From Candidatus Heimdallarchaeota archaeon (GTDB taxonomy: Archaea > Asgardarchaeota > Heimdallarchaeia > Heimdallarchaeales > Heimdallarchaeaceae), in the NCBI GenBank assembly GCA_021399395.1, contig JAAFKJ010000115.1:2364-66363 (forward strand): a stretch of DNA of 64,000 bases, given 5' to 3'. Shown piece after piece: positions 8,819-40,414 of the stretch (position 1 is the first letter of the stretch; each line of letters starts with the position of its first letter). Both the position numbers and the translations under genes were made by a program. The notes beneath the pieces were generated by a model. It was not told the origin of the DNA. It did no database searches and worked only from the letters and a program-made list of their open reading frames with translations.

Positions 8819-10144
8819 ATGAATAAAATTGCTCCATTGATTCTTAGTGCTCTAGAAACAATCGAAAAGGGAAAATCCATCAGAGTTACACTTAGAGCTA
8901 TTATTGAAGATACCAACATAACAAAAGAAGAAGAATCAATGCTTTATTATTATGTTTTTGAAATTTATAGAAAACTTAATTTCATTGATTTATACATCAA
9001 AAATAGCTCATCATCCTATTCCTTAAAGAAAATAGGAGTAGAAAATAGAAGTTTACTGAGGCTTTCCACTCACTTGCTAAAAATTGATTTGAAATCATTA
9101 CCTGATGTCCTTGAACTTCTACAAGACTATTACTACCAAATCGGAAATCTTGAGTTTTCGACTATTTTGAACTCAATTAAGGATACGTCTGAAGAACAGC
9201 TTTACGAAAATCGTGATGATCTTGCTTCCAAACTCTCTCTCCAATTTTATCTTCCAACTTGGATTATTAGACGGTTTATAGATCAATGGGGGGAAAAGTT
9301 TACTTTGGAACTCTTACCATCTCTTCTAAAAAACCCCCCTCTCTACATAAGAGTTAACACTCTAAAATCAAATCTTGATAAAATTGAGGGATCATTTAAC
9401 AGTCAGAATATTGAGTATACGAAGGTAGAGGAAGTTGAAAATCTTCTAAAAATTATAAAAAGTCCAATTCCAATTCCTCGCATAAAAGAGTATATTGAAG
9501 GAGATATTGTTATTCAGCAAAAAGCTTCTGCAGCTGTTTCACTAGTTTTGAATCCTCAAGAAGATGAGCGTATCCTAGATATGTGTGCCTCTCCAGGAGG
9601 TAAAACGGCGCATATTGCGGCTCTTATTGGATCTGGAAAAGGAATAACGGCAGTAGATCTAAATGATGAAAGAACAAGGGTTCTGAAGCAAAGATTACAA
9701 CTTCTGGGTGCTCATGATATAACGGTAATTAAGACAGATGCTCGAGAATTATATAACAAGATTGATTATACTTTCGATAAAATTCTTCTTGATCCTCCTT
9801 GTTCCGGATCTGGTACCTATTCCTCTAGACCAGAAAATAGGTGGAGATTAAAACAAAGAGATCTTAGATGGTATGTTAATCTTCAAAAAGAATTACTACA
9901 ATCCGCAGCAAGATTGACCAAGGAAAATGGATGCATTATCTACTCTACCTGTTCTTTATTTCACGATGAAAACTCAGATATTATCACTTCATTTCTACAA
10001 GATAATGAAAATTTCTTTTTAGAGAAGACCAATCCCAACATTGGTTTCCAAACGAAAATAGAAGCCGGAAATGTTCAGGAAGTCTTTCCTCATCTACATG
10101 AAACTGAAGGATTCTTTATAGTGAAGATTAAAAGAAGAAAATGA
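8819..10144 (+). CDS. NOL1/NOP2/Sun-family RNA m5C methyltransferase
   Basis: 'DMCASPGGKT' SAM motif, the 'LLDPPCSGSG' and 'YSTCS' catalytic cysteines, and an N-terminal NusB-like region. Confidence 0.85.
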   Translation: MNKIAPLILSALETIEKGKSIRVTLRAIIEDTNITKEEESMLYYYVFEIYRKLNFIDLYIKNSSSSYSLKKIGVENRSLLRLSTHLLKIDLKSLPDVLELLQDYYYQIGNLEFSTILNSIKDTSEEQLYENRDDLASKLSLQFYLPTWIIRRFIDQWGEKFTLELLPSLLKNPPLYIRVNTLKSNLDKIEGSFNSQNIEYTKVEEVENLLKIIKSPIPIPRIKEYIEGDIVIQQKASAAVSLVLNPQEDERILDMCASPGGKTAHIAALIGSGKGITAVDLNDERTRVLKQRLQLLGAHDITVIKTDARELYNKIDYTFDKILLDPPCSGSGTYSSRPENRWRLKQRDLRWYVNLQKELLQSAARLTKENGCIIYSTCSLFHDENSDIITSFLQDNENFFLEKTNPNIGFQTKIEAGNVQEVFPHLHETEGFFIVKIKRRK

Positions 10145-26052: not shown

Positions 26053-27066
26053 GTGGTTATTGTGTCAGATATACTACAAGCTATCCTTGAAAGTGGATCA
26101 ATTCTAGTAATTGATCCAACAGTTATTCAAACCAATCCGGATGATTTTTTAGATCATTATGGACATATTTTAGATGTGATTGCACTCGTTGCAAAAGGTA
26201 AGTCTGGATTTACTTTCTATCAAAGCAATAGTGCACCAAGAGATAAGACAAATGGGGTGTTCTTCCATTCATTTTGTACCATAGCTGATAATATGGGAAT
26301 CAAAGTAGATGCAATCGTGAATTCATACAGTGATACTTTTCTATCACAAAATGCAGACTTTCAAGTGGTAAGCAGTGATGGTGCAACCATAGCGTCGTTT
26401 GCATGTCCAAGTCAAGAGAACTTCAGCAGATATTTGGCATCCATCGCTTCTGAAGTAGCACATTATCCAATAGATGGCTTAATTCTTGATGATTTAATGC
26501 TTCCAAATAAAAGATCATGTTTCTGTGATCGATGCCGAAGATTATTTGCTAGTAAATGGAATATCGAACGTGATTTCAGTTTTGAATATCTGGAATCTAA
26601 AGACCTATTGACAAATTGGAATGATGAAAGGTCTACCTACGTAAATCAAGCCTTGAAGGAAGTTACTGATACCGTAAAAGGATTGAAGAACATAGATATT
26701 TCCATCATTATGAAAACTGATAGAGAGACAGATTCTTTAATTGGTTCTCATGAGCATTTCGGTCAGAATATTGTTGAACTTGCCAAAACCACCCGTAATT
26801 TGATATTGCATGTAAATCCTTGGAGTGAAATCTCCTCTACAAAAGATGACCCTGCATATCAACAATTATTGACATCATTATCAATACTAAAAGAATATTC
26901 AGGAACTGGAATCAAACCTTCACTCTACTTCTGGGACATTACAACATCTGAAAAACTCGAAACTGCAATAAAATTAAAAGATGATTTGAAAGCAGAGAAG
27001 TTATACATAGATTCAACTCTTCCACATGATTTCACAAAAAGACGAACTACTAACCTAGGGTTTTAG
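26053..27066 (+). CDS. Hypothetical protein, possibly a TIM-barrel glycoside-hydrolase-like (GHL) fold
   Basis: 'IDGLILDDLMLPNKRSCFCDRCRRLF' resembles the D-x-x-R-x-P...C-[FY]-C-x-x-C motif of GHL-type barrels. GTG start. The assignment is weak. Confidence 0.4.
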   Translation: MVIVSDILQAILESGSILVIDPTVIQTNPDDFLDHYGHILDVIALVAKGKSGFTFYQSNSAPRDKTNGVFFHSFCTIADNMGIKVDAIVNSYSDTFLSQNADFQVVSSDGATIASFACPSQENFSRYLASIASEVAHYPIDGLILDDLMLPNKRSCFCDRCRRLFASKWNIERDFSFEYLESKDLLTNWNDERSTYVNQALKEVTDTVKGLKNIDISIIMKTDRETDSLIGSHEHFGQNIVELAKTTRNLILHVNPWSEISSTKDDPAYQQLLTSLSILKEYSGTGIKPSLYFWDITTSEKLETAIKLKDDLKAEKLYIDSTLPHDFTKRRTTNLGF

Positions 27067-27068
27067 AA

Positions 27069-28451
27069 ATGACTCTTGAAAAAGCAATTGAAGAAATTAA
27101 GAAGATGTTTTGGGGAGTATTAAAAGGGCAATTTAATCCTGAAGAGGAAGAAGACGTTAAAACTCATCTTATAACGAATTTAGCCACTTTAACTTCATAT
27201 GCAAAAACATGCTTGCCACCTGATCAGAAGAAAGAGTATGAAAAACACTTTACTAAAGCTAAAGACGTTCTTCTGAAATTTGACAGTGCAGGTCCTTGGT
27301 TTAGAGAACTTCCAGAGATGATTGATACCGTTTATAATGTTATCACCTATGCAAACATGTTGCAGATAGAATATCATCGTTTTAATGGCACAGATAACGA
27401 CAGTCTACAATACATTAATACAAAATTGGAAACTTTGGAAATGCAAGTCAATTCCCTCATTGAAGACTTAAAGAGCATTAAGAAGAAAATTTCTCCCTCC
27501 TTTCAAACCAATCGGCCAGTAACTATAGACGAAACTAAAGGGGAGTTAGTTGATTTTGAGGAAGAAACTCAACTTGAAACTGAAGATGAAGTTCAAGTTT
27601 TTGCTGAACCCATTGATACAACACCAATTGAAATAAAAGAAGTTGAAGAAGCCGAAGAAGATGATACAAAAATAGTTAAGGAGACTGAAATTGAAACTCC
27701 TGAGGTAGAATTAGTGGGAGTTCTAGATGAAGAAATAAGCGGTGATACACAAGATTTGATTGAAGGGATAGAAATCGCTTCTCAGTATGAATTTGAACAA
27801 GAACCATTTGTGCAAAATATAGAATCTGAGCAAGAGGCTTTAAAACAACTAGCAAATCTACTATCTGCTTTAGATCCAGGAGATGATTCTGTAATATCTC
27901 CCCTTACTGAAAAATTGATGACCATTGGAGAAGAAGATGAAATAGAAATCATAGAAGAAATCCCATCAATTGAGTCTGGAGTTGTGGCTGAGGAAGATTT
28001 AAGCAAAGAAGAAATAGCAGAAGTCCACGAATTTAGATCATCAGTATCGCGGTTGAGTCACGTTTTATCATCACCATCAGAAATTAAGGATGCGGCAGAA
28101 TTTGTTTCATCGATAAAGAAAACTATAGCAGATGTTTCTAAGGATAAGGATCTTGAAGCTGGTAAGAAATCAAAACTAACTCAAATCATAGAATCTGAAG
28201 TGGGTGAAGTAGAAAAACCTCCAGTTCAAACAGAAGATATTGAGAATGTAATTAAGCACCTTGAAACCAGAAGACAAAAGGCAGTAGAACGGATACAGCA
28301 ATTAGAAGAAGCTCTTAATTCAGAGAAAATTGATGAGGAAGAATGGCAAGAACTTCGAATAAAGGCTGAAAGACATATGTTAAGGGTTGAAGATACTCTA
28401 GATGGTTATAAGAGATATTTGACCAAATTACATACTAAACCCACCGAATAA
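27069..28451 (+). CDS. Highly acidic protein with a helical N-domain and a C-terminal coiled coil
   Basis: 460-aa ORF starting 2 nt after the previous stop. It has a long E/D/I/V-rich middle region and terminal heptad repeats. Confidence 0.5.
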   Translation: MTLEKAIEEIKKMFWGVLKGQFNPEEEEDVKTHLITNLATLTSYAKTCLPPDQKKEYEKHFTKAKDVLLKFDSAGPWFRELPEMIDTVYNVITYANMLQIEYHRFNGTDNDSLQYINTKLETLEMQVNSLIEDLKSIKKKISPSFQTNRPVTIDETKGELVDFEEETQLETEDEVQVFAEPIDTTPIEIKEVEEAEEDDTKIVKETEIETPEVELVGVLDEEISGDTQDLIEGIEIASQYEFEQEPFVQNIESEQEALKQLANLLSALDPGDDSVISPLTEKLMTIGEEDEIEIIEEIPSIESGVVAEEDLSKEEIAEVHEFRSSVSRLSHVLSSPSEIKDAAEFVSSIKKTIADVSKDKDLEAGKKSKLTQIIESEVGEVEKPPVQTEDIENVIKHLETRRQKAVERIQQLEEALNSEKIDEEEWQELRIKAERHMLRVEDTLDGYKRYLTKLHTKPTE

Positions 28452-28455
28452 GACG

Positions 28456-28893
28456 ATGATCATGAAAGAAATTTTTCTTACTCATTATTATTATGGTGAT
28501 AGATTTACATCTTTTAAGACAGGATTAGGTACTATTATTAGAGGTCTTGGTCATTCATTGAATATTCGAATGATTCTCATAAATGACTCCTTTCATTGGT
28601 TAACAAATCAAGATCAGTTCAAAAATATAGATGCAGTTTTTCTTGATTTAAATCAACACAAAGAGATTCTACGTGTTCTTCAAGAAGAAATTTTGTCCTT
28701 AGAGAAGTCTCTTCTGTTTATTGCCAATTTTGATTTACTCATTGAGCATAACATTTTGAGTATAGAGGATTTTATAGATCTTATTAAGAGTAAACATAAA
28801 ACAACAGAGATTCTTTTAACTGGGGAAATGAAGTATCCTAAACTAGAAAATATAGCTGATTATGTAAGTGCCATTCAATCAACTAAAAACTAA
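28456..28893 (+). CDS. CobO-like fold protein lacking the P-loop
   Basis: Aligns by eye with the protein at 18333-18842 ('DLLIEHNILSIEDFIDLI...EILLTGEMKYPKLENIADYVSAIQ' vs 'ELGIALSYDLVEWKDLQTIL...EIIITGRKIPDKIRSRVDEIINIE'). G-x-G-x-GKT is replaced by 'YGDRFTSFKT'. Confidence 0.45.
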   Translation: MIMKEIFLTHYYYGDRFTSFKTGLGTIIRGLGHSLNIRMILINDSFHWLTNQDQFKNIDAVFLDLNQHKEILRVLQEEILSLEKSLLFIANFDLLIEHNILSIEDFIDLIKSKHKTTEILLTGEMKYPKLENIADYVSAIQSTKN

Positions 28894-29673
28894 ATCAACT
28901 GCAATATGTGCAATTCTAGGGGCTAACCATCTTATTAATCTCGATGTTTCTATATGAAAAGAAGATTCAATTTGGTTTGTTTTGAGAACATTCTCAATCT
29001 TTTGTTCAATATTTCTGTTAATTCTTTCCTTCTCTTGCACCTTATCTGTTATTTGCCAATGGATGATACCTTTACCATCTTTTAGAGAATTAACTGCTAC
29101 TGGAAGTGCACGTTCTGCTTCAAGAGGAAGGGGAAGGAGTATTCTATCAACTTCACCAAAAAATAAATCTGGTACAATACTAAATGCATCTCCCAGATAA
29201 GTTTTTACTATATCTTCACATTTGTTTAATTCAATGTTCCTTACAAGGAAATTATATGCCGCTTCGTTCAATTCAATACTGTGTACAATACACTCCTTAC
29301 ATTTCGTAGCGATAGCAATACTAAATGGTCCAACTCCTGAAAAGAAATTTAACACAATTTCTCCTTCTTTAACCAAATTAGCAATTCTTTGTCTCTCATA
29401 ACTTAATCTTGGTGAGAAAAACGTGGTTGATATGTCAACTTCAAATGTGTTTCCATACTCTTTATGAACGGTTTCGAATGTTTCGATCCCCATAAAATGT
29501 TGAAAATCTCTAGATCTCTCCACTCCTTTTACTTTAGAGGTTTGCACAACTACCGTTTTTATTTTAGGGTACCTTTCTAATATTTCATTTGAAAACTGTA
29601 GTAATTTAGACTCATCAGTTTGCTCGCGTATGATAAGTATGCTCCCTACAATTTCAAAGATAATATCCTTCAT
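28879..29673 (-). CDS. Trm5/Taw2 (Met-10+) family tRNA methyltransferase
   Basis: SAM motif 'VLNFFSGVGPFSIAIA' and the 'LLPLP' motif equivalent to NLP. The ~265 aa size matches the short Taw2/Trm5 forms. Confidence 0.7.
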   Translation of the reverse strand: MKDIIFEIVGSILIIREQTDESKLLQFSNEILERYPKIKTVVVQTSKVKGVERSRDFQHFMGIETFETVHKEYGNTFEVDISTTFFSPRLSYERQRIANLVKEGEIVLNFFSGVGPFSIAIATKCKECIVHSIELNEAAYNFLVRNIELNKCEDIVKTYLGDAFSIVPDLFFGEVDRILLPLPLEAERALPVAVNSLKDGKGIIHWQITDKVQEKERINRNIEQKIENVLKTNQIESSFHIETSRLIRWLAPRIAHIAVDLVFS

Positions 29674-29698: not shown

Positions 29699-31852
29699 TT
29701 ATTCTGGAATTTCCCGGATAGGTTGCCCTTTGTATATAGCTTTGTCAAACGCAATTCTTCTCATTTGAGGTTGAGTATTAATCTCTTCATAATAATGTGC
29801 TGCTAATCCTGCCGTTCTTCCAAAGACAAAGACTGCTTTAGCTAATTTCGGATTTATATCCATATCTGCAATAATGGCCCCAATTACACCATCTACATTA
29901 ATTGGAAGATTCATTCCTCGAACTCTATAAAAGGCATCACCTATAATTTTTGAAACTGCAACACATTCTTTTGCATATCCCGCTTTTTCGGATAAATCCC
30001 AGAGAACATCTCTTCTAGGATCTTGTGTGTGGATTCTATGACCTAGTCCTTCGATACGTTTACCTGATTTGATGGTTTTTTTAATTAGCTCAAAGGTTGT
30101 TTCTTGAAGGTCGGTTGCGTTTTCTTTTGATAGTTTTACAGCTGAAAGCATGAATTCAGCAGCTTTTTGCCCTGCTCCTCCATGAACATCAGTTATAGCT
30201 TGAATGCCTGCAGAAATTGCTACTTCATAGTTAGCGCGAGTTGATGCTAATATTAGAGTGGCTTGTGCTGATGGAGGAGTAACTCCATGGTCCACACAGG
30301 CAGTAATTATAGCTTCAAGAAGTTTGATTTTCATTTTATCCTTAGGCATTTCTCCAACTAATCCCAAATAGAGTAAATCTGAGAAAGAGAGATTTTCTTT
30401 GCTTTGAGTATCAATTTTTTGTACGTTTCCAAAGTAAATTGAAAGATATCTCAAAACCCTTCCCAAGGAATATACTACAATTTTTGAAGGATTTTTTTCG
30501 AATTGAGCAAATGTTGATAATTTATCATCAAGTAGCAAAAACGTTCCAATAAGTTTGGAAACATCAGATTCTTTAGAGATTTTATCATTATAGAGAAATT
30601 CTTCCTTAGCTGCGTTAATTCCAATCTCCTCGAGTTCTTGCATTTCTCCAACCGGAAATTCTCCTTCAATTAAAAGACTAGCTGTTTCTAACAACCCTTT
30701 TTTTGCAATTATCTCCTGTAAAGGATATCCTCTGATTATGAGGTTGTTAGGAACAACTTTTGTTATCAAAGTTCCCCATGTAGGTTCAGGAGATTTTTCA
30801 TCCCATTTCTTTTTCATTCTTTGATAATAATTCTCTACTTCAAAGTATGTTCTGTTAAGTTTAGTTTTTACGGCGTCAATCAAATCTTTTTGATGGTTTA
30901 CAACAACAGCTCCAGCTTTTTCTAATAACTCTTTTTTGGAGTTGAAAGTTCCATGTTTTTGACCAGGAGCTATAACTGCTCCAGCATGTCCCATTGTTTT
31001 TCCTTCTGGTGCGTTTGCTCCAGAAATAAGTGCAACTAGAGGTTTTGGGTATTTTTCGGGATGATTTATCATATCTTGAGCAAGAAGTTCCTCTTGCATT
31101 CCTCCAATCTCACCTGCAACAACTACCAAATCTGTATTATCATAATTCATTACTAAAGAAACAAGGTCTACAAACCTTGAACCTATAGCACCGTCTCCAC
31201 CAACTCCTAGTACACCATTTTGAGCTATTCCGGCACTTGCCAAAGCATCTGACATGTGATACAGAATTGCTCCACTTCTTGATAGAATGGTGACACCTTT
31301 TGGACCAATAGTTCCATCTTCTGTAATTTGTGCTTGAAAAATATCGGGAAGCATGCCGACTTTTATTGCTTCAGGGGGGAAGATTATACCTGGTGTATTT
31401 CCTCCAAATAAGATGGTTTTGTGTTTTCGAGCCTCTACTAAAATATTTCTTACATCTTTGAGTGGAATAAATTCTGAGATAAGAACCACAATTGGTACTC
31501 CCGATCTAATGACTTCTATTGTTGCATCTTTTGCAGTTGAATAATGTCTCCAGATACTAGCTACAGCAATATTTGGGTGACTATTTACCGCTTCTTCTGC
31601 AGAGTCATATACTGGAATGGTTTCATGTACTTTTGTTCCACCTCTGCCTGGTGCAACTCCACAAGTCACATTTGTTCCATATTCCATCATAAGCTGAGCA
31701 TGTCTTGTACCTTGTCTTCCTAACCCAACTATCATTGTTTCAATTGACTCAGATTGATTTATTTTCTCCGCAAGCTTCGGTCTTACCTGTTTAATAAGAT
31801 AATAAAGCAATCCTTGGTTAGTGTTAAGTTTTTCATTTTTCATATAACTCAT
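29699..31852 (-). CDS. ATP-citrate-lyase-like large subunit (SucD-like CoA-binding/phosphohistidine domain fused to a citrate-synthase-like citryl-CoA lyase domain)
   Basis: 'GRQGTRHAQLMMEYGT', the catalytic-His loop 'TMGHAGAV', and C-terminal 'GLGHRIHTQDPR'. There is a 4-nt ATGA overlap with the upstream subunit. Confidence 0.8.
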   Translation of the reverse strand: MSYMKNEKLNTNQGLLYYLIKQVRPKLAEKINQSESIETMIVGLGRQGTRHAQLMMEYGTNVTCGVAPGRGGTKVHETIPVYDSAEEAVNSHPNIAVASIWRHYSTAKDATIEVIRSGVPIVVLISEFIPLKDVRNILVEARKHKTILFGGNTPGIIFPPEAIKVGMLPDIFQAQITEDGTIGPKGVTILSRSGAILYHMSDALASAGIAQNGVLGVGGDGAIGSRFVDLVSLVMNYDNTDLVVVAGEIGGMQEELLAQDMINHPEKYPKPLVALISGANAPEGKTMGHAGAVIAPGQKHGTFNSKKELLEKAGAVVVNHQKDLIDAVKTKLNRTYFEVENYYQRMKKKWDEKSPEPTWGTLITKVVPNNLIIRGYPLQEIIAKKGLLETASLLIEGEFPVGEMQELEEIGINAAKEEFLYNDKISKESDVSKLIGTFLLLDDKLSTFAQFEKNPSKIVVYSLGRVLRYLSIYFGNVQKIDTQSKENLSFSDLLYLGLVGEMPKDKMKIKLLEAIITACVDHGVTPPSAQATLILASTRANYEVAISAGIQAITDVHGGAGQKAAEFMLSAVKLSKENATDLQETTFELIKKTIKSGKRIEGLGHRIHTQDPRRDVLWDLSEKAGYAKECVAVSKIIGDAFYRVRGMNLPINVDGVIGAIIADMDINPKLAKAVFVFGRTAGLAAHYYEEINTQPQMRRIAFDKAIYKGQPIREIPE

Positions 31853-33153
31853 CCCCTAATCTCCTGTTGTTTTATTTTGAAACCGTATTCAATACCGTCT
31901 TTGATTACATCCGCCATAATTTTTTGATTCCCAACGACTATGTGCAAATCTTTCAAAGGTTCAGGAGTTTCTCTTTTTGCCTTTTCTAGATATTCTCTTG
32001 CAGCTGCTAAATCAGTTCCCACCATCCTACCATATACTGGAATCATTCTTCTTTTTTGCAAGTATCTGTCTCTTAAAGACATAATCAAACCACGGATAAA
32101 TACATCACAACTTGAAATTCCTCCAAATCTGCTAGTGATTATTAGATCTGTTACTGGATGATCCATCAGAAGATGAAACATATCTGCAACTTTGCTAAGA
32201 GATGGACCTCCTCCACTATCCATGAAGTTTATTGGAACTACCTTCCCGTCGAAATACCTGTTGCCTACATTAACTACTTCATCAACTGAGAAGATACCAT
32301 ATCCAGCTCCTCCTGGAACTAATGCAACATAGAGCTTGTCTTCTTCCTCATTAAAATTATCTGGATTTTCTAATAAATCTAAATATGGGAACCCAATTTT
32401 ATACGCTTTTGCTTCAAAAACAGTTTGTTCTGAGACATCGTGTCTTTTACTTCTTGGGTCAATACCCATTGATTGTAACAAGGGTTCTTGCCTGTATAAA
32501 CTGTTATCGTCTAATACTACTTTTGCATCTGCCGCTACAATCTGGTTATCAGCTGTAAGGATTAAAGGGTTAATCTCACAGATTTTAGCTTCAATATTCT
32601 GAAAAGTTGAATAAAGGGATTTTATTGTATTTTGTAACTGATTTCTGATTTCGGGTATCTCTGGGAAGTTTTTTAGAAGGAAGTTAACTGCTTCTTCAGT
32701 AATAGATTCATCTAACTCTTTTGCATTATCAAAAATGGTTTTTTTCCAGATCAATTCAGGATTGTTTTTTGCAACTTCTTCTATGTCGATTCCACCACTT
32801 GCTGAAGTTACTAAAACTATGTCAAATGTTGCAGGATCTGTTGTTACTGCAAGATAAATTTCATTGGAAATGCTTACTGTTTCTTCTAATAGAATTTTCT
32901 CAATTGGGTATCCTCGAATTGAAGTTTGAAACATTTTTTCAATAATCTTCTTTGCTTCTTCAATGTTTTCTACTTTTTTGATTCCTCCCGCTTTTCCTCT
33001 TCCACCAATTAACACCATTGCTTTTACCATTAAAGGGAATGATAATGTAAATGAATCAATATCCTCTAGTTTTTCAATTACTGCTACTTGTCTAGGAATT
33101 TTTAATCCAAATCTCTCAAAAATCTGTTTAGCTTCATACTCGTATAATTTCAT
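31849..33153 (-). CDS. ATP-citrate-lyase-like small subunit (SucC-like ATP-grasp)
   Basis: N-terminus 'MKLYEYEAKQIFERFGLKIP' and 'VKAMVLIGGRGKAGGI' are typical of succinyl-CoA-synthetase-beta/ACL ATP-grasp domains. Confidence 0.8.
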   Translation of the reverse strand: MKLYEYEAKQIFERFGLKIPRQVAVIEKLEDIDSFTLSFPLMVKAMVLIGGRGKAGGIKKVENIEEAKKIIEKMFQTSIRGYPIEKILLEETVSISNEIYLAVTTDPATFDIVLVTSASGGIDIEEVAKNNPELIWKKTIFDNAKELDESITEEAVNFLLKNFPEIPEIRNQLQNTIKSLYSTFQNIEAKICEINPLILTADNQIVAADAKVVLDDNSLYRQEPLLQSMGIDPRSKRHDVSEQTVFEAKAYKIGFPYLDLLENPDNFNEEEDKLYVALVPGGAGYGIFSVDEVVNVGNRYFDGKVVPINFMDSGGGPSLSKVADMFHLLMDHPVTDLIITSRFGGISSCDVFIRGLIMSLRDRYLQKRRMIPVYGRMVGTDLAAAREYLEKAKRETPEPLKDLHIVVGNQKIMADVIKDGIEYGFKIKQQEIRG

Positions 33154-33165
33154 ATTTCTTCACTT

Positions 33166-35019
33166 TTAAGATGAATTAAGTTGTTGATAATAACTGATTA
33201 AACCTCCAGCATTGAAGATTTTGAGTAATTCTTCTGGAAGTTTAGGGAAAATATAAGATTGATCTCCATTAGTAATTATACCATTCTCTAAATCAATTGT
33301 TACGGGTTCATCTGGATTATAATTACTTACAAATTCAGAATGAACAATGATAGGTAATCCTTGATTGATTGCTGACCTATAGAATATTCGAGCAACTGAT
33401 TTAACTATGACAGCTTTTATACCCGCAGCAGCAAGTCCTACAGCAGGATGTTCTCTTGATGAGCCACATCCAAAATTTTCTCCGCTTACGATAATATCCC
33501 CTGGTTTGACCCTAGATGCAAATGTTTCATCCAATCCTTTGAACAAATGTGGTACGATTTTATCTCCTTCTGACGATTTGATATCATATGTTAGCCCCCC
33601 TGCGAACATTTGATCGGTATTAAAATCGCTAATATCTTTGTAATTCCAAACATTTTCTTTGTATCTGTCATCATTAGATCCAATTGTGAGAGTTTTTTCT
33701 TCAATATCTCTTGATTTTAGTTCAATTGTTTTTTCGTCACTTTTAACTTCAATTGAAAGATATTCCCTAGGATCAACAATTTTCCCTTCTATTGCTGAAG
33801 CAGCAACAGTTGCGGGTGATGCTAGATACACTGAAGATTTCTTGTTTCCCATTCTCCCTAAGAAATTTCTATTTGCTGTTGATATTACATTCCATCCATC
33901 TGCTGGAATACCTTGCCCTTTACCTAAACAAGGACCACAACTACATGATAAGATTGTAGCTCCTGCATTAACGAGAATTGTAATTACGCCTTTCTTCAAT
34001 GCTTGTTGATAAATCTTCGAAGATGCTGGAGCAACTAAGAATACCACTCCTTTCTTTATCTTCTTATCCTTCAAAATCGAAGCAGCGATTTCTAAGTCAT
34101 CTAAACGTGCATTTGTACAAGTACCCAAGAAAGCTTGCTGAATCTCGATTTCATTTAAAACCTTCGCAAATTCTGCGTTATCCACTTGATGAGGAACGGC
34201 AACTAGTGGTTCTAAATGGTTTAATTGTAATATTACTTCGAAACTAAATGATGCATCTTCATCTGACCACAATACTTCTTTTTCATTCAAGAAATCATTG
34301 CTTTCATATTTCTCTGATAGCCACTTTATTAAAACTTCATCTGATGGAAAAATGGCTGTTTTTGCACCCATTTCTGATGCTAAATTGGCAAGTGTCATCC
34401 TTTCTGAGACAGAAAGTGTCTTTACTCCATCTCCATGAAATTCTATCGCTTGATATGTTGCACCTGATGCCCCTATCTTATTCATTAACCAAAGAGCTAT
34501 GTCCTTTGCATAAACTCCTGGCGATAATTTACCGTTCAAAACTACTTTAATAGTTTCAGGAACTCTGAACCAAGTTTTTCCTGTTAACCACAATCCCGCA
34601 GTTTCCGTTCGATCAATTCCAGCTGCAAATGCAGCGAAAGCTCCACTTGTACATGTGTGTGAGTCTGAACCAACAACTAACATATTTGGGAGTGCATGGT
34701 TAGACATAAGTTGATGACAAATGCCCCTTCCTTCGTCATAAAATTTGGTGATATTATGCTCTTTTACCAGCTCTCTTATGCTTTTATGATCATTTGCTAT
34801 TTGTACGCTTGTTGGTGGGGAATCGTGATCAAGAACAATTACCAATCGATTTGGAAACATAATTTTTGTCCCACCCATTTTTTGGAATGTTTTAACAATT
34901 GAAGCTGAATTGTCGTGTGACAGAATTAAATCGGGTTCTGCATAAACAATAGATCCTGCTGTAACATTCAAATCTGATTTAAGTGAAAAAAGTTTTTCAG
35001 AAAATGTTTTTCCAACCAT
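33166..35019 (-). CDS. Fused LeuC-LeuD-type aconitase-family hydro-lyase
   Basis: Fe-S ligand motifs 'GSDSHTCT', 'GTCTNARLDD' and 'SCSCGPCLG' in the first ~420 aa. A LeuD swivel domain with 'GENFGCGSSREHPA' occupies the last ~170 aa. Confidence 0.8.
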   Translation of the reverse strand: MVGKTFSEKLFSLKSDLNVTAGSIVYAEPDLILSHDNSASIVKTFQKMGGTKIMFPNRLVIVLDHDSPPTSVQIANDHKSIRELVKEHNITKFYDEGRGICHQLMSNHALPNMLVVGSDSHTCTSGAFAAFAAGIDRTETAGLWLTGKTWFRVPETIKVVLNGKLSPGVYAKDIALWLMNKIGASGATYQAIEFHGDGVKTLSVSERMTLANLASEMGAKTAIFPSDEVLIKWLSEKYESNDFLNEKEVLWSDEDASFSFEVILQLNHLEPLVAVPHQVDNAEFAKVLNEIEIQQAFLGTCTNARLDDLEIAASILKDKKIKKGVVFLVAPASSKIYQQALKKGVITILVNAGATILSCSCGPCLGKGQGIPADGWNVISTANRNFLGRMGNKKSSVYLASPATVAASAIEGKIVDPREYLSIEVKSDEKTIELKSRDIEEKTLTIGSNDDRYKENVWNYKDISDFNTDQMFAGGLTYDIKSSEGDKIVPHLFKGLDETFASRVKPGDIIVSGENFGCGSSREHPAVGLAAAGIKAVIVKSVARIFYRSAINQGLPIIVHSEFVSNYNPDEPVTIDLENGIITNGDQSYIFPKLPEELLKIFNAGGLISYYQQLNSS

Positions 35020-35031
35020 AATGTAGTCTCC

Positions 35032-35538
35032 TCAGAATTTTTCTCCTAATTCTAATAACCCCCCAGCATTCATAATATCTAATACTGGTTGTGGAATTTT
35101 TCTGCAAGTTATTTGTGTATATTTAGTTTTGTTTAGGATAACTGATTGATTAATATCTATCTCTATTTCGTCATCTTTGTCAGTATCAAAACTAGCGATT
35201 TCAGGAACTTCAACAAGAAGTAATCCTGCGTTTACAGCATTGCTGTAATATATGGGACCAAAGGATTCACCTATTATTGCTTTAATTTTGTGGGCAAGAA
35301 ATCCAGTTACTGCTTGTTGCCTGGTAGATCCTTTACCAAAATTTTTTCCTACCACCAAGATTTTGTTTGAATTGTCTTCTTTTCCGAAATCTTGAAATCC
35401 TTCTAAATTACCGAAAATGTGAGGCTTAATTTCTTCTGGATTGTGGATTGTTAATAATGATTGATGAAAAATTTGATCAGTATCAATATCATCAACACGT
35501 ACTAATTTCACTTTACCGATAATAGTCTCTTTTCTCAT
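35032..35538 (-). CDS. Aconitase-family small subunit (LeuD/HacB-like), divergent active-site loop
   Basis: Swivel-domain layout. 'GKNFGKGSTRQQAV' stands in place of the usual 'G-x-NFGCGSSREHA'. Confidence 0.8.
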   Translation of the reverse strand: MRKETIIGKVKLVRVDDIDTDQIFHQSLLTIHNPEEIKPHIFGNLEGFQDFGKEDNSNKILVVGKNFGKGSTRQQAVTGFLAHKIKAIIGESFGPIYYSNAVNAGLLLVEVPEIASFDTDKDDEIEIDINQSVILNKTKYTQITCRKIPQPVLDIMNAGGLLELGEKF

Positions 35539-36824
35539 TTATTTTCACCGACTTTGGGGATGGCAATTTTCCCTTCAATTGCTGTCGCTGCAGCTATTGC
35601 TGGGCTTGCTAAATAAACATCCGCTGGACCGATTTTTCCTTGTGTATTGCGGTTGCCAGTTGTTAAGGTAACAGCTGTTTTTCCACCTGTTAACCCATAT
35701 TGACCTTTTGCACAAGTTGAACAACCTGCACCAAAGAAGTTGCCACCAGCTTCTAGAATTACTGTCATATCTCCATCAGCATTTATTTCAACAAAATCTT
35801 CTCTGGTTGCTGGAACGATACCGAATCTTACATTAGGGTTGATTTGAGAGCCTTTGAGTACTTTTGCAACTTCATGAATGTCATCGGCACTGCCGTTTGT
35901 ACAGGAACCAATTATGATTGAATTTATCGGGGTTCCCAAAACATCTTCTATGGGCTTAACATTATGTGGGTGAGGCGGACAGGCAATGTATAATCCTAAA
36001 TTATCTATGTTGATTGTAAGCTCAGAATCATAATTTGCATTATCATCTCCAGCCAATAACTCTATGTTAATGTTAAACTGTTTATAATATTCTGCAGTTA
36101 CTTCATCAGCTGGAACAAATCCTATCATACCAGAAGCTTCTGTAATTAGTGAACATAATGTCACACGGTCTTCAATTGAAAGTTCCGAGATTATATCACC
36201 ACTGAACTCAACGGCTTTTCCAGTGATCCCATGTTCATGAAGTTCCTTTAAAACGTATAATGCTAAATCTTTGGAAGTAGTGGGCCATGTGTATCTGCCT
36301 TCTAGTTTAATCTTTACAGTTTCAGGAATTTTTATCCAAGATTTGCCTGTTTTGAAGGCAAAAGATAACATTACGTCTCCTGCTCCTTGACCAAGAATAC
36401 CTAATGCGCCTAGTATATTATAATGGCTATCCGCACCAATAACCATGTTCCCTGGTTTTGAAAAACCTCTTCTAAATAGTAGATGAGAGCCAATACCCGA
36501 TCCTAAATCTGTAACTTTAATCTGGTGTTCCTTTGCAAATACGCGAATCTTTTCTTGATCTTTAGCGTGCTTTGGATCATTTCCATACGGATAACAATCT
36601 GGTGTAAAAATTATTTTGTCGCTATCAAATGTTTTTGAGCCAGGATAGTGCTTTTGAAATAAATCGATAACTTGAGGACCCGCGTAATCTCTTGCTGTAA
36701 CTAAATCTACATTTACCCATACAATATTACCGGGATAAATATCCTCATCTGAAGCCTCTGTGTGCTTTCTAATAATCTTCTCTATTAGCGTAAGCCCCTT
36801 CATTTTCCTCAAATTCACCAACAT
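35535..36824 (-). CDS. Aconitase-family large subunit (LeuC/HacA-like)
   Basis: 'GADSHYN', 'GSCTNGSADD' and 'GCSTCAKG'. There is a 4-nt overlap with the small subunit. An alternative ATG at 36803 gives 'MKGLTLIEKII'. Confidence 0.85.
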   Translation of the reverse strand: MLVNLRKMKGLTLIEKIIRKHTEASDEDIYPGNIVWVNVDLVTARDYAGPQVIDLFQKHYPGSKTFDSDKIIFTPDCYPYGNDPKHAKDQEKIRVFAKEHQIKVTDLGSGIGSHLLFRRGFSKPGNMVIGADSHYNILGALGILGQGAGDVMLSFAFKTGKSWIKIPETVKIKLEGRYTWPTTSKDLALYVLKELHEHGITGKAVEFSGDIISELSIEDRVTLCSLITEASGMIGFVPADEVTAEYYKQFNINIELLAGDDNANYDSELTINIDNLGLYIACPPHPHNVKPIEDVLGTPINSIIIGSCTNGSADDIHEVAKVLKGSQINPNVRFGIVPATREDFVEINADGDMTVILEAGGNFFGAGCSTCAKGQYGLTGGKTAVTLTTGNRNTQGKIGPADVYLASPAIAAATAIEGKIAIPKVGENK

Positions 36825-36914
36825 GAAAATAAGTAATAAACATATCTCTATGTGTTTATACTAACTATTACTTGAAAATAAATAAAAAGAAGGAAAAATG
36901 TAAACCGTTTACAT

Positions 36915-38042
36915 TTATTTTAATTTTTCACAGATTGCATCAGCCATTTCAGTAGTTTTTGCATCTCCACCCATATCATATGTTCGAACTTTTCCTTCAG
37001 CAATAACAGCTGCTACTGCATCTTCAATTTTGTTAGCCATCACTTTTTCTCCAAGCCAGTCTAACATCATTTTAGCTGATAAAATCTGTGCTATGGGATT
37101 AACTTTGTTTTGACCTACATATTTTGGAGCTGATCCATGGCTGGGCTCAAAAACTGCAAAGTTGTCACCAATGTTTCCTGAACAAGCAAACCCTAAACCA
37201 CCAACTAACTGAGCACATAAATCGGAAACAATATCACCAAACATGTTGGAAGAGACTAAAACACCATAATTCTGTGGATTCTTAACTAACCACATGCACA
37301 TGGCATCAATATTGGTTTCCCAGAGTTCTTTCCCTTCATAATCTTGGATGAGTTTGCGTGCTTCTCTAATCATCAAACCAGAAGTTTCACGAATCACGTT
37401 TGGTTTTTCAACAACAGTAATTGTAGGATAATCATACTCCTTTGCGTAATCCATACTAGCTTTCAAAATTCTTTGGACACCTTTTCGAGTGAAAATTCTT
37501 GTAGAAATAGCAACATCATTCAAATTTGCATCTGCAAAACGTTTAGCTTTAGGGTTATTTTCTATTAAACAATTCATTACCTCTTCTGGTACGGGATGAA
37601 ATTCTATCCCAACATAAAGACCCTCAGTATTCTCTCGAAACACTACTAAATCTAAATCATCTCGGAAATTTAATGGGTTGCCTGGATAAGCTTTGCATGG
37701 ACGTAAATTTACGTACAAATCAAATAACTGCCTTAATTTAACAATTGGGCTAGAATACACTAATCCTTTTTCTTGTAGTTCTGGAGCTAATTCCTTCTGT
37801 GCTTCTTCTTTTGGCTTAGAAGTAATAGCTGAGAATAAACAACAATCTGAATTTTTGAGTAACTCTATTGTTCGATCAGGTAGAGGATTTCCTTCCGTCT
37901 TCCAGAATTCCCATCCAATATCACCATAGGTATATTCTGCCATTTCACTAAATCCAACAGCATCTAAAACTTTCATTGTTGCCTCTGTGACATCTACTCC
38001 GATACCATCTCCAGGTAAAACTGCGATTTTATACTTCTTCAT
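36915..38042 (-). CDS. Isocitrate/isopropylmalate/homoisocitrate dehydrogenase family enzyme
   Basis: 'IAVLPGDGIG', 'LRQLFDLYVNLRP', 'NMFGDIVSD' and 'EPSHGSAP' motifs. Substrate cannot be deduced by eye. Confidence 0.85.
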   Translation of the reverse strand: MKKYKIAVLPGDGIGVDVTEATMKVLDAVGFSEMAEYTYGDIGWEFWKTEGNPLPDRTIELLKNSDCCLFSAITSKPKEEAQKELAPELQEKGLVYSSPIVKLRQLFDLYVNLRPCKAYPGNPLNFRDDLDLVVFRENTEGLYVGIEFHPVPEEVMNCLIENNPKAKRFADANLNDVAISTRIFTRKGVQRILKASMDYAKEYDYPTITVVEKPNVIRETSGLMIREARKLIQDYEGKELWETNIDAMCMWLVKNPQNYGVLVSSNMFGDIVSDLCAQLVGGLGFACSGNIGDNFAVFEPSHGSAPKYVGQNKVNPIAQILSAKMMLDWLGEKVMANKIEDAVAAVIAEGKVRTYDMGGDAKTTEMADAICEKLK

Positions 38043-38069: not shown

Positions 38070-38633
38070 TTAATTTTCTTCAAATATTTTCTTTATTGGG
38101 GAAAAACAAAGGAAATCAACACGGTGGATTATATCTACTTCTGGTAATCGATTAATCTTATCACCTTCTTTACTGTGGAATACAATAGCCTGTCTTACAA
38201 TAATAGGTAAATTGAATTCGCTTACTAATTCCAAACCCATTGCTGGGTGACGAATGCGGTTTCCTTCCAAAGTTTGAAATATTTTTCCTGATGAATCCCT
38301 TTCATATTCTGTGAATTTACCAACATCATGAAGTAAGGCTCCTGCAATTAACTCATCTCGATTCAATTTGTCTCCTAATCCCAAGTTAGAATATGTTTCA
38401 TATGTGGCAATGCACATTTGTGTCACAGCTCTAATATGATCAACCAAACTGATTTTTGCTACCTGGTCTTCTAATATTAGATCAGGAATTAAAAGTGTAG
38501 CAGGTATAAACTTAAAATCTTCATCAGCCCAACCACCAAGTTTAATTGCTTTTTTAAGAGATTTGGTTACTTTTTCACGTAACTCCTTATCATTAATTTC
38601 ATTAAGTTCTGGAAATAATTTTGTAATATCCAT
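38070..38633 (-). CDS. HD-domain phosphohydrolase
   Basis: 'H...ALLHDVGK' H-HD motif. ATG at 38633, with the track's TTG at 38657 also possible. Confidence 0.75.
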   Translation of the reverse strand: MDITKLFPELNEINDKELREKVTKSLKKAIKLGGWADEDFKFIPATLLIPDLILEDQVAKISLVDHIRAVTQMCIATYETYSNLGLGDKLNRDELIAGALLHDVGKFTEYERDSSGKIFQTLEGNRIRHPAMGLELVSEFNLPIIVRQAIVFHSKEGDKINRLPEVDIIHRVDFLCFSPIKKIFEEN

Positions 38634-38737
38634 TATTATACCCCGGTTTGTTTTCAATCTTAACGAATAGATTGTTATTGGTACCTCACAACCATTAGTA
38701 ATATATTATTTTCTGTATGTAGTGTGAGGTTGAATAA

Positions 38738-39124
38738 CTAAACATATCCAAAAAGAGACAATCTGTTTTTTCCATGGAGGGAGATGACAGCAATTCCTTT
38801 TTCTCTGAGAGTTAATCTAAGTTCTCTATCGTTGGTAGCTACAATTGCCTTGTGTTCTAGTGCTAAACGGAGAATTTCTTCATCGGTATGAATTTTCTCT
38901 TGTGATTCTAAAATGGAGTAATTTTGTGCAAGATTAAGTGCAAAATTTGCTTTTCTCGTAGTTACACTACTAGAACTCCTAAGCAGTTCAGTTAATTCAT
39001 TAATAACAATTTTAGGAACAACAATCTCATATGATTGAGTAATAATTCGTTCAATTTCAGACGATAGATTAATTCTCTTTTCTAAAGGAAGCATCAGCAT
39101 ACTTGAATCAAGAATGATGAGCAT
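38738..39124 (-). CDS. PIN-domain ribonuclease (small archaeal PIN encoded next to aIF2-gamma)
   Basis: N-terminal 'IILDSS' acidic motif and later 'ATND'. 128 aa. Starts 18 nt after the aIF2-gamma stop. Confidence 0.7.
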   Translation of the reverse strand: MLIILDSSMLMLPLEKRINLSSEIERIITQSYEIVVPKIVINELTELLRSSSSVTTRKANFALNLAQNYSILESQEKIHTDEEILRLALEHKAIVATNDRELRLTLREKGIAVISLHGKNRLSLFGYV

Positions 39125-39142
39125 TCAATCCTCTCTCGTGAT

Positions 39143-40414
39143 CTAATCCTTAATAGAGCCAACACCAATCAACCTAAAGCGACCAGCAATTCTTCTTGAA
39201 ATTGCTACTTTGCTTTGAGTACTTGCTGCAACCTCTCTATTAAGTTTAATTTTTACGTCTTCCCCTTTGATTTCAGTTATTGATCCTGCTGTTTTTGCGG
39301 TTCCAACATTTAGCATTAAGGTTTCTCCTTGAGCTAATGGTTGCACTTTTGTTATTTCTTCTGAACCAACAACAAATTCCATAAGACGAACAGTTAATGC
39401 AAGTTCCGTACGAACTGGAGGGGTATTATTGGGTGTTGTAACTATATTACCTGACATTTTATCGGCTTTTAAAAATGAAGGATCTAATTCAGTTCCTATA
39501 GATACTAATCCTCCTGAATGTGCGCTGTCAACTAGACCTTGTTCACCTATTGAAATACTAACCACTTTAGTTTTGATTGGAGTATAAACAGTTTTATTAC
39601 CCTTTTTGATAGCAATACCAGGCACTATTTCGATATCTTCTCCCTTTGTAACCTGTCCTCTAATTATAGTTCCCCCAAGAGCTCCTCCCCTAATTTTCTC
39701 GGGTTTGGTTCCTGGACGATTAATATCAAATGATCGTGCAACATGCATTTCTAAGGGGCTTTCAATATCAGAATCGGGAGTTGGTATGTTTTTCTCAATT
39801 TCACAAATTAAAACATCTAGATTAGCACTATGCATTGCGCTGATAGGTATGATCGGTGCATTTTCTGCAATGGTTCCCTTGATGAAATCCTTAATCTCTT
39901 GATAATTTCTTTGAGCTTCTTCTTCTGTTACCAATTCGATTTTATTTTGAACGACTACTATGTTAGGTATTTGAAGAATCTCCATTGCTGCAAGATGTTC
40001 TCTTGTTTGTGGTTGTGGGCACCTTGAATTAGCTGCAACAAGCAAGATAGCACCATTCATAAGAGTTGCACCAGAGAGTAATGTAGCCATTAATACTTCG
40101 TGTCCAGGGCAGTCGACAAAAGATACCCTTCTAAGAAATTTGGAAGGTGTTCCACATTTTGGACACTTTTCTTCTATTGTATATGCTTCTGGATCTGGAC
40201 ATTTAGGGCATTTACGGAATTCTGTATCAGCATAGCCTAAACGTATGGAAATTCCTCTCTTCAATTCTTCAGAGTGGTCATCTGGAAATTTACCAGTAAG
40301 TGCTTGTACGAGGGTAGACTTACCGTTATCTACGTGCCCTATTGTACCTATGTTGACAACTGGTTGTCTGATTGTCTTTTCTTTCTTTTTTTCAGGAGAA
40401 TCTGCTTGGCTCAT
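39143..40414 (-). CDS. eif2g: Translation initiation factor aIF2 gamma subunit
   Basis: 'GHVDNGKST', 'DCPGH', 'QNKIE' and the zinc knuckle 'CPKCPDP...CPKCG'. Confidence 0.95.
   Translation of the reverse strand: MSQADSPEKKKEKTIRQPVVNIGTIGHVDNGKSTLVQALTGKFPDDHSEELKRGISIRLGYADTEFRKCPKCPDPEAYTIEEKCPKCGTPSKFLRRVSFVDCPGHEVLMATLLSGATLMNGAILLVAANSRCPQPQTREHLAAMEILQIPNIVVVQNKIELVTEEEAQRNYQEIKDFIKGTIAENAPIIPISAMHSANLDVLICEIEKNIPTPDSDIESPLEMHVARSFDINRPGTKPEKIRGGALGGTIIRGQVTKGEDIEIVPGIAIKKGNKTVYTPIKTKVVSISIGEQGLVDSAHSGGLVSIGTELDPSFLKADKMSGNIVTTPNNTPPVRTELALTVRLMEFVVGSEEITKVQPLAQGETLMLNVGTAKTAGSITEIKGEDVKIKLNREVAASTQSKVAISRRIAGRFRLIGVGSIKD

Follow-up and report, generated by a model that had tools for sequence, protein, structure and literature searches.

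A conserved seven-gene module with a ligase-lyase outside the ATP-citrate lyase family in a Heimdallarchaeaceae genome, and its putative role between acetyl-CoA, citrate and 2-oxoglutarate

ATP-citrate lyase (ACL) has been discussed repeatedly for Asgard archaea: a 2022 preprint described ‘ACL homologs’ in most Asgard phyla (10.1101/2022.10.25.513756), and Santana-Molina et al. (2025) recorded ACLA/B in various Asgard archaea while placing eukaryotic ACL with DPANN and Thermoplasmatota (PMC11976288). Another architecture, the postulated type II ACL of Magnetococcus and tubeworm symbionts, has two subunits with a ccsB-ccl fusion, and its genes cluster with acn, idh, kor and tfr (PMC5459899, PMC6783814, PMC6315080). 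Because a canonical ACL exists in some Asgard families, the published statements need not concern the family treated here. We analyzed a 64,000-nucleotide stretch of contig JAAFKJ010000115.1 from a Candidatus Heimdallarchaeota archaeon (Heimdallarchaeaceae), hereafter the window, in which an ACL-like gene pair stands in a block of six minus-strand open reading frames (ORFs; 29699–38042) with an HD-domain gene upstream. We consider it fairly probable that these seven genes form an alternative citrate module, both conserved and mobile, that connects acetyl-CoA plus oxaloacetate, citrate, isocitrate and 2-oxoglutarate. The features are as follows, F and S denoting two clades of hydro-lyases.

29699–31852, minus strand: large (alpha) subunit of the ligase-lyase, 717 aa; CoA_binding, Ligase_CoA and Citrate_synt (Pfam, NCBIfam)
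31849–33153, minus strand: small (beta) subunit of the ligase-lyase, 434 aa; ATP-grasp_2
33166–35019, minus strand: F-clade hydro-lyase of fused LeuC-LeuD type, 617 aa; Aconitase and Aconitase_C
35032–35538, minus strand: S-clade hydro-lyase small subunit, LeuD-like, 168 aa; Aconitase_C
35535–36824, minus strand: S-clade hydro-lyase large subunit, LeuC-like, 429 aa; Aconitase
36898–36914, minus strand: palindrome, with a T-rich run at 36876–36897; read from the sequence
36915–38042, minus strand: beta-decarboxylating dehydrogenase, 375 aa; Iso_dh (LeuB/AksF-like)
38070–38632 (ATG) or 38657 (TTG), minus strand: HD-domain protein, 187 aa from the ATG; Pfam HD

The original prediction, made from the letters of the window, had described the six minus-strand genes with their coordinates, overlaps and domain content, and the ORF list, Pfam and NCBIfam bear all of this out, as they do the motifs GHAGAV and GLGHRIHTQDPR in the large subunit. 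Its count of six was incomplete, however, since it overlooked the conserved HD gene as a seventh member. Four-nucleotide overlaps join the beta and alpha genes (31849–31852) and the genes for the large and small S subunits (35535–35538), and the remaining intergenic gaps measure 12, 12 and 90 nt. Inside the 90-nt spacer, a perfect palindrome, ATGTAAAC-G-GTTTACAT, lies directly 3' of the dehydrogenase stop codon and is followed by the T-run. These elements may form a terminator or attenuator separating two transcription units, and the module may be transcribed as an HD-dehydrogenase unit and an S-F-beta-alpha unit. The single operon that had been proposed is therefore only one possibility.

The alpha subunit joins a succinyl-CoA synthetase (SCS) alpha-like CoA-binding/phosphohistidine domain (residues ~35–335), whose GHAGA loop carries H289, to a full-length citrate synthase (CS)-fold domain (residues ~360–717) of the citryl-CoA lyase (CCL) clade. 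The phosphohistidine loop with H289 is invariant in 14 family members, as are the CS catalytic triad H557, H605 and D654 (equivalents of H274, H320 and D375) and the oxaloacetate-binding arginines R613, R679 and R698 (equivalents of R329, R401 and R421). In the beta subunit the acid-site loops GGAGYGIFS, NFMDSGGGP and SRFGGISSCD are invariant across the family and unlike those of both SCS and AclB, and the beta and alpha genes adjoin each other at every locus examined. Of the loci retrieved with the phosphohistidine motif that the family shares with SCS, most carried ordinary SCS-alpha genes, and L004–L010 were informative. The nearest alpha homolog, with 94% identity, is from Candidatus Heimdallarchaeaceae. 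The alpha ortholog of one genome of the same genus (G087:C4:25210–27348) contains a single in-frame TAG, for which a sequencing error, a pseudogene or recoding are possible explanations.

The pair, which had been described as ACL-like, is not a canonical ACL. The Citrate_bind domain (PF16114) was matched neither in the 434-aa beta subunit nor anywhere in the genome, and the same model was positive in 24 of 121 other Asgard genomes. Compared with solved structures, the alpha N-terminal half scored 182 bits against SCS alpha, 110 against Chlorobium AclA and 103 against the small subunit of citryl-CoA synthetase (CCS); for the beta subunit, the scores were 161 bits against SCS beta, 78 against the CCS large subunit and 49 against Chlorobium AclB. 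The same order was obtained within Asgard archaea (phmmer), where alpha gave 75–101 bits against canonical AclA and 147–194 bits against SCS, and beta gave only 24–40 bits against canonical AclB and 135–181 bits against SCS. Both parts nevertheless fell below the curated SCS models of NCBIfam (alpha 215 bits, cutoff 353; beta 235 bits, cutoff 370). In the trees, each formed its own clade with a long stem and short internal branches (alpha N-terminal part, 100% support; beta, 100% by the Shimodaira–Hasegawa-like approximate likelihood ratio test, SH-aLRT); canonical Asgard AclA and AclB made up clades apart, likewise on long stems, and shorter fused forms of 555–575 aa fell outside the family clade. 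These trees covered SCS, ACL, the window family and the short fused forms, and gave no firm branching order among SCS, the window family and the short fused forms.

The lyase domain covers positions 12–353 of the 357 in the Pfam Citrate_synt model, CS chains in the PDB align over query residues 36–376, and the domain retains ~100 CS-fold residues that are missing from Hydrogenobacter CCL. Its nearest solved structure is nonetheless that CCL (6hxp, 126–128 bits), followed by CS structures at ~50 bits. NCBIfam gave 195 bits against the CCL model (cutoff 212) and 84 bits against the best CS model (cutoff 421). In a CS-rooted tree the domain shares a clade of 97% support with 6hxp; long forms, whether fused or free-standing, interleave and make up one clade (96% SH-aLRT) nested among CCL-type proteins, and the C-termini of canonical AclA branch separately. 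Among 1.8 billion representatives, its nearest relatives are free-standing proteins of 350–380 aa, followed by CCLs of ~260 aa. Its identity as a free-standing citrate synthase was rejected on these scores, its grouping with CCLs and its fusion to a ligase subunit. Free-standing CCL-like genes of ~260–274 aa also occur in several Asgard genomes (G113, G104, G020; L103, L104, L109), and no ligase gene was detected within ~4–7 kb on either side of them.

On this evidence we take the pair to be a citryl-CoA synthetase, dependent on ATP/ADP, combined with a citryl-CoA lyase; it would work in the manner of ACL while lying outside the ACL family. A quite unlikely alternative is that the pair is an SCS paralog whose alpha subunit is fused to an ordinary hydrolytic citrate synthase, giving two separate tricarboxylic acid (TCA) cycle activities in one protein. 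The preference of both ligase parts for SCS over CCS or ACL would fit such a fusion, as would the full-length C-terminal CS fold with its CS triad and the names in public annotations (‘succinyl-CoA synthetase alpha’ or ‘citrate/2-methylcitrate synthase’), but the lyase is nested in the CCL radiation and not among citrate synthases. The interleaving of long free-standing and fused forms would suit a two-step system of CCS/CCL type. That the beta and alpha genes overlap by 4 nt in the window and are adjacent at all loci examined also counts against the alternative. A canonical sucC is also present in the same genome, at the end of contig C145, and relatives have separate SucCD pairs. This separate SCS, together with invariant acid-site loops unlike those of SCS, indicates that the pair is not the housekeeping SCS, and its candidacy as the SCS of the genome was likewise rejected, given the scores below the SucC/SucD cutoffs and the coexisting canonical enzyme. 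The sequences thus point to a pair distinct from both canonical ACL and housekeeping SCS. Citrate is its inferred substrate, from the fused lyase and the gene context.

The two hydro-lyases of the module belong to separate clades, S (support 100/100) and F (97/95), each of which spans Archaea and Bacteria. The S clade holds the split pair of the window, a gene of a Borrarchaeum ACL cluster, a fused Eubacteriales gene from an HD-S-beta-alpha cluster and a fused euryarchaeote gene; the F clade holds the fused gene of the window, split euryarchaeote genes, an Eubacteriales gene beside a module-type dehydrogenase gene and a gene of a Bipolaricaulota ACL cluster. In the euryarchaeote metagenome-assembled genome (MAG) G143 (L090, 2484–6117), S and F are neighbors, but it is S that is fused and F that is split, the reverse of the Heimdall arrangement, which indicates repeated, independent fusion and fission of large and small subunits. 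LeuC proteins encoded next to LeuA fall outside both clades. The S and F genes stand head-to-head in Asgard genomes of family f5, and the genes around S/F pairs in genomes of families f5, f3 and f6 included none that were informative.

We checked the equivalents of Asp100-His101, His147, Asp165-Ser166-His167, Glu262, Arg447/452 and Ser642/Arg644 together with the three Fe-S cysteines. The F protein keeps all of these canonical catalytic residues of the aconitase family, cysteines included, and is most likely the aconitase of the module, judged by its conserved active site. The S protein retains the three Fe-S cysteines, DSH, Glu262 and S-(S/T)-R, but in every member seen His101 is replaced by Cys, Gln72/His by Arg and Arg452 by Lys, and the His147 motif is shifted; this signature recurs in six further Asgard genes. 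For the proposed isomerization of citrate and isocitrate by one of the two LeuCD-type enzymes, F is the best candidate; S is catalytically atypical. The small S subunit has the specificity loop IFHQSLLT, with GSTRQ in place of GSSRE, and each clade has a loop pattern of its own: I(F/Y)H(N/Q)xxL in S and F(P/A)G(K/R/G/S)(Y/L)TY in F. The window loops GLTY(D) and LLTI correspond neither to the YLVY of isopropylmalate isomerase (IPMI) nor to the YLRT of homoaconitase, and have no Arg at the loop position.

The hydro-lyases stayed below the cutoffs of the curated equivalog models. They reached 418 and 289 bits with TIGR02083 (IPMI, cutoff 611), 425 and 290 bits with NF040615 (homoaconitase, cutoff 550) and, for the aconitase models, 393 bits with NF005558 (cutoff 612) and 307 bits with TIGR01342 (cutoff 719). 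Only the general family model NF001614 was passed by the F protein, which stayed below the IPMI, HacA and aconitase equivalog cutoffs, scored almost equally against MjHacA (350 bits) and MjIPMI (344 bits) in the PDB, and shares 33–38% identity with the ~650-aa aconitases encoded beside canonical Asgard ACL.

The dehydrogenase likewise falls below every NCBIfam cutoff (274 bits against the best isocitrate dehydrogenase (IDH) model, cutoff 510; 325 bits against AksF2, cutoff 540), AksF/LEU3_arch being the best-scoring models. Against the PDB, Thermus homoisocitrate dehydrogenase (HICDH; 3asj) and the small NAD-dependent IDHs 6ltf and 6m3s were about equal, at ~220 bits each. The enzyme keeps the general catalytic residues of its family, and Val occupies the position of Arg85 in Thermus HICDH. 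Six orthologs from four lineages have two insertions in common and the loop (S/F)-S-P-I-V. All seven IDH controls, five of them encoded beside canonical Asgard ACL, have S-x-N. Isocitrate is the most economical substrate, since the lineage has no other enzyme to produce or consume it, and the protein is probably an isocitrate dehydrogenase. A role in the 2-methylcitrate cycle was rejected because 2-methylisocitrate, a tertiary alcohol, cannot be oxidized by an IDH-type enzyme; PrpB was not searched for.

A more conventional assignment, by which the hydro-lyases and the dehydrogenase would serve 2-oxoacid elongation toward leucine, lysine (alpha-aminoadipate) or coenzyme B and would stand beside an ACL-like pair by chance, is close to refuted. 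By hidden Markov model the hydro-lyases are about equally near methanogen homoaconitase and IPMI, and the dehydrogenase, best matched by AksF/LEU3_arch, has a hydrophobic substrate loop like that of isopropylmalate dehydrogenase (IPMDH). But PF00682, which covers LeuA, homocitrate, citramalate and Re-citrate synthases, had no match in any of the 31 family genomes and was positive in 14 of 14 control genomes, and no IlvD was found in the genome of the window. The absence of the LeuA family leads us to reject all three readings, and with them the leucine or coenzyme-B scenario that had been named as a challenge to the proposed pathway. Genomes with LeuA, moreover, keep a separate LeuC beside it, outside the S and F clades; all scores stay below equivalog cutoffs, and the loops have neither the YLVY nor the YLRT signature. 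The same gene set also occurs in one euryarchaeote and one Eubacteriales genome without LeuA synthase, both with the S and F fusion reversed, G143 having only a weak partial PF00682 match. We also weighed a route to 2-oxobutyrate by way of a citramalate synthase that yields ATP; it fits the hydrophobic loop of the dehydrogenase and is disfavored by the three conserved oxaloacetate-binding arginines and the absence of IlvD.

In the 2.8-Mb assembly (81.8% complete), no AcnA/AcnB-type aconitase, other aconitase-family, Iso_dh or citrate-synthase-family gene was found outside the block, in agreement with the original prediction as regards canonical aconitase. PF00285 matches only the fused alpha subunit in the family, above the curated cutoff in 26 of the 31 genomes. 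The dehydrogenase is single-copy in 27 of them and the HD protein present in 26. The same four genomes (G074, G122 and the single-contig G026 and G069) have neither, and the three of these that belong to the phylum sample also have neither alpha nor any aconitase-family gene; the remaining discrepancy is G131, which has the dehydrogenase without an HD match and whose dehydrogenase gene begins at a contig end. Across the phylum sample, 12 of 121 Asgard genomes (families f1, f19 and f5) encode the fused alpha, and close dehydrogenase orthologs (at least 76% identity) are confined to f1 and f19. This co-variation supports gain or loss of the HD, dehydrogenase, hydro-lyase and ligase-lyase genes as a unit.

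Beyond the family, the genes immediately preceding the pair are a CitD/CitE fusion and CitF in a Bipolaricaulota locus, and an Odin locus has class I fumarase and CitF ahead of it; on another Bipolaricaulia contig the pair is accompanied by Tfr/Hdr-like (Tfr/Frd-like) reductase genes, Iso_dh, HD and PrpD. In other Asgard families (f5, f13 and f23; L100–L102, L110 and L111) a ~650-aa fused aconitase, AclB, AclA and a ~400-aa IDH are encoded together in a conserved operon, which by analogy would follow the same logic with canonical paralogs and may be regarded as a functional analog of the module. Canonical ACL is present in 24 of the 121 sampled Asgard genomes, one of which (G119) has both the canonical operon and the non-canonical pair. 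AcnX large and small subunit genes lie ~4 kb upstream of an HD-beta-alpha cluster in a euryarchaeote MAG (L009, 2567–4168) and are probably unrelated, e.g., a mevalonate-pathway dehydratase.

The HD gene lies 27 nt upstream of the dehydrogenase gene, with the ATG at 38632 preferred over the TTG at 38657 as its start. It is directly upstream of the dehydrogenase gene in 26 of the 31 family genomes, and of 10 distant loci 6 have it beside the ligase-lyase genes (those of Heimdall, Borrarchaeum, a ‘Euryarchaeota’ MAG, Eubacteriales and two Bipolaricaulota). No PDB sequence matched the HD protein significantly. Its AlphaFold2 model had a mean predicted local distance difference test (pLDDT) score of 87.5, and the best Foldseek match was the HD domain of YhaM, with a template modeling (TM) score of 0.63, the others being generic HD phosphohydrolases. 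This conserved seventh member is an HD-domain metal-dependent phosphohydrolase, to which the fold search assigned no specific role.

In the mechanism that we favor, the beta and alpha subunits would act as an SCS-type ligase that makes or uses citryl-CoA through a phosphohistidine, and the fused long-form lyase would interconvert citryl-CoA with acetyl-CoA and oxaloacetate in a readily reversible step. The F hydro-lyase would then interconvert citrate, cis-aconitate and isocitrate, and the LeuB/AksF-like dehydrogenase would interconvert isocitrate with 2-oxoglutarate and CO2. As a conserved accessory member, S could catalyze one half-reaction of the isomerization or a side reaction, and HD could act on a phosphorylated by-product or on a phospho-enzyme. 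The two half-reactions are divided between aconitase and homoaconitase in the lysine synthesis of Thermus and yeast, and between PrpD and aconitase in the methylcitrate cycle. With no citrate synthase, the module would be the sole link from acetyl-CoA and oxaloacetate to 2-oxoglutarate in the Heimdallarchaeaceae genome of the window. A self-contained route between 2-oxoglutarate and acetyl-CoA, as had been envisaged, is therefore favored by the block's holding the only CS-, aconitase- and IDH-like genes of the lineage, by the absence of LeuA and by the analogous Asgard operon, and is weakened by the atypical S and by a dehydrogenase without S-x-N. The analysis establishes gene content, conservation, co-variation and catalytic residues; from these we infer the substrates, the aconitase role of F and the direction.

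Several observations weigh against this interpretation. F and S lie below the curated cutoffs of all equivalogs (aconitase, IPMI and homoaconitase), their specificity loops match no characterized enzyme, and S has no general-acid histidine. S/F pairs also occur in f5 genomes that own the canonical aconitase-ACL-IDH operon, and five genomes have S but no fused alpha subunit, so that their role may be other than that of a simple aconitase; this is the main reason for our limited confidence. In the dehydrogenase, S-S-P-I-V replaces Ser113-x-Asn115, with no Asn115 and with a hydrophobic I-V pair as in IPMDH, and the missing S-x-N is real evidence against a simple IDH label. We also counted the incompleteness of the assembly as a point against, and found no biochemical study of the ligase-lyase family in the literature searchable here.

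These features could instead mean that the ligase-lyase handles citrate while the hydro-lyases and the dehydrogenase run another, undescribed route whose end product is not simply 2-oxoglutarate, for example a branch at cis-aconitate or a pathway of an alkyl- or homo-substituted analog, with S catalyzing a non-standard reaction and HD removing the phosphate of an intermediate. We regard this as unlikely, although it would account for the clade-wide remodeling of the S active site (with Cys for His101, Arg for Gln72/His and Lys for Arg452), for I-V in the dehydrogenase where IDHs have N-V, for a conserved HD phosphohydrolase, for S/F pairs that persist beside a canonical aconitase-ACL-IDH operon and for small-subunit loops unlike those of characterized enzymes. 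Family f1 has no other aconitase or IDH, however, and citrate from the ligase-lyase would otherwise meet a dead end; in the analogous canonical operon, ACL is accompanied by an ordinary aconitase and an IDH. Thermus HICDH, which by alignment also has no Asn115, is moreover said to use isocitrate still. Within the citrate module that we prefer, a more specific reading is tentatively offered, with less conviction than the module itself: an unrecognized first third of the citric acid cycle built from the ‘wrong’ paralogs, namely an ATP-conserving enzyme that forms or cleaves citrate, composed of an SCS-type ligase with an ancestral-looking full-length CCL, and hydro-lyases and a dehydrogenase of Leu/Aks type, in which the S and HD steps have no textbook counterpart. 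One possibility is that S and HD provide a dedicated isomerization half-reaction or handle a phosphorylated or side-product intermediate.

The genome encodes enzymes that such a module could join. An archaeal pyruvate:ferredoxin oxidoreductase (POR) was found, as was a KorAB-type two-subunit 2-oxoacid:acceptor (ferredoxin) oxidoreductase that exceeds its curated cutoff, and an SdhA/FrdA flavoprotein, class I fumarase, glutamate dehydrogenase, an Ldh_2-type malate dehydrogenase (MDH) candidate and malic enzyme are also encoded. The module would connect with the KorAB-type oxidoreductase, SCS, SdhA/FrdA, fumarase, the MDH candidate and glutamate dehydrogenase, and could close a full cycle or feed or drain 2-oxoglutarate. 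A DASS sodium-coupled di/tricarboxylate symporter gene beside the KorAB genes (G000:C20, ~4579–9095; L113, 579–5095) suggests uptake of organic acids, e.g., 2-oxoglutarate, succinate or citrate.

With this complement (the KorAB-type enzyme, POR, SdhA/FrdA, fumarase, SCS and the MDH candidate), the module might serve autotrophic CO2 fixation as the key step of a reductive TCA cycle, and in some bacteria the pair stands beside Tfr-like fumarate reductase genes. We find this very doubtful, since the same enzymes serve oxidative or branched TCA variants in heterotrophs, the neighboring symporter suggests organic acid uptake, and close relatives, among them two members of the family with complete genomes, do not have the module, which is thus dispensable. 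Sequence itself sets no direction. Desulfobacter postgatei is said to run ACL in the citrate-forming direction. The ACL reaction lies near equilibrium (ΔG′m about −8 kJ/mol; PMC13147460), which makes either direction feasible. For the citrate module we lean slightly toward citrate formation with ATP conservation, which would supply 2-oxoglutarate and glutamate in a heterotroph, the reductive direction being equally allowed.

Just upstream of the module and in the same direction are a PIN_9-domain gene and the gene for aIF2-gamma (38738–40414), the latter marking the organism as archaeal, and just downstream is a TYW2/Taw-like methyltransferase gene (28879–29673). The order of these PIN_9, aIF2-gamma and methyltransferase genes is also kept in the syntenic Heimdallarchaeota locus L008, which indicates that the module is embedded in a housekeeping neighborhood. 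Between the stop codon of the PIN gene and the HD gene, a 7-bp inverted repeat, CCTCACA...TGTGAGG, surrounds a 32-nt AT-rich stretch (38684–38729) and could act as a terminator for the genes before it or serve the module as an operator/promoter element. Farther along, two neighboring plus-strand ORFs (337 and 460 aa; 26053–28451) had no Pfam match at E ≤ 1e-5 and are followed by a small CobA/CobO/BtuR-like protein at 28456–28893.

If the pair is what we propose, the names in public annotations imply that metabolism reconstructed from annotation may, for Asgard archaea including Heimdall and for Thermoplasmata, Bipolaricaulota and Aminicenantes, count CS plus SCS where one ACL-like enzyme exists, or may overlook citrate cleavage. 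This bears on claims that the archaea nearest to eukaryotes have a complete TCA cycle, a reductive TCA cycle or a ‘eukaryote-like’ acetyl-CoA supply. The last of these, a eukaryote-like cytosolic acetyl-CoA supply, had been raised for this locus and has no phylogenetic basis here, a link to eukaryotic ACLY being unsupported. A ligase-lyase with a full CS-fold lyase is also relevant to the proposed evolutionary route from CCL to CS, and an aconitase-superfamily clade with Cys for the general-acid His and an IDH-family clade without the isocitrate motif would be noteworthy biochemistry. Judged from sequence, then, the unusual features of the module are the ligase-lyase architecture, the hydro-lyase clade without His101, the dehydrogenase without S-x-N and the conserved HD partner.

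Each component has close relatives among described systems. Among solved structures and NCBIfam models, those of SCS (SucCD) score highest with the two ligase parts, and the phosphohistidine loop and ATP-grasp fold are the same, but the window pair differs in its scores below curated cutoffs, its long-stem clade, its distinct invariant acid-site loops and its lyase fusion. For the hydro-lyases, the closest solved structures are LeuCD and HacAB of M. jannaschii (PDB 4kp1, 4kp2, 3vba and 2pkp), which have the same LeuCD-type split or fused architecture and three Fe-S cysteines; the window enzymes are set apart from methanogen IPMI and homoaconitase by scores below the equivalog cutoffs, separate S and F clades, other loops and, in S, the loss of His101. 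The dehydrogenase compares with small NAD-dependent IDHs and Thermus HICDH, whose loops read S-x-N-V and G-A-I-R, respectively, where the window enzyme has S-S-P-I-V together with its two insertions.

Among citrate-cleaving systems, CCS/CCL of Hydrogenobacter has the chemistry that we propose, in which a ligase with ATP-grasp and phosphohistidine makes citryl-CoA and a CS-family lyase splits it. That characterized CCL (H. thermophilus) is a free-standing protein of ~260 aa without the N-terminal third of the CS fold, whereas the window lyase is fused and of the long form, and CCS matches the ligase subunits of the window less well (78 and 103 bits) than SCS does (161 and 182 bits). Type II ACL (Hugler & Sievert 2011; Magnetococcus Mmc1_3638/3639), compared by description only, resembles the window family in its described architecture. 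The motifs VAKEEWF and NGFEAIA encoded in type II primers (PMC3522073) occurred in 0 of ~290 proteins, 120 of them from the window family, which is a negative but weak test of identity with type II ACL. Type I ACL, represented by Chlorobium AclB/AclA (6hxj), Methanothrix ACL (6hxi), human ACLY and Asgard AclB/AclA, differs in having PF16114, in falling into separate clades in all three trees, in a truncated lyase module of ~260 aa that is ~100 residues shorter than the window lyase, and in the acid-site loop, which reads GGIANFT in AclB and GGISSCD in the window enzyme. The window enzyme nevertheless has in common with it the two-subunit layout, in which an SCS-alpha-like domain is joined to a CS-family domain, as well as the phosphohistidine loop and a CS-family lyase with catalytic His and Asp, and both are encoded in an operon context with aconitase-family and IDH-family genes.

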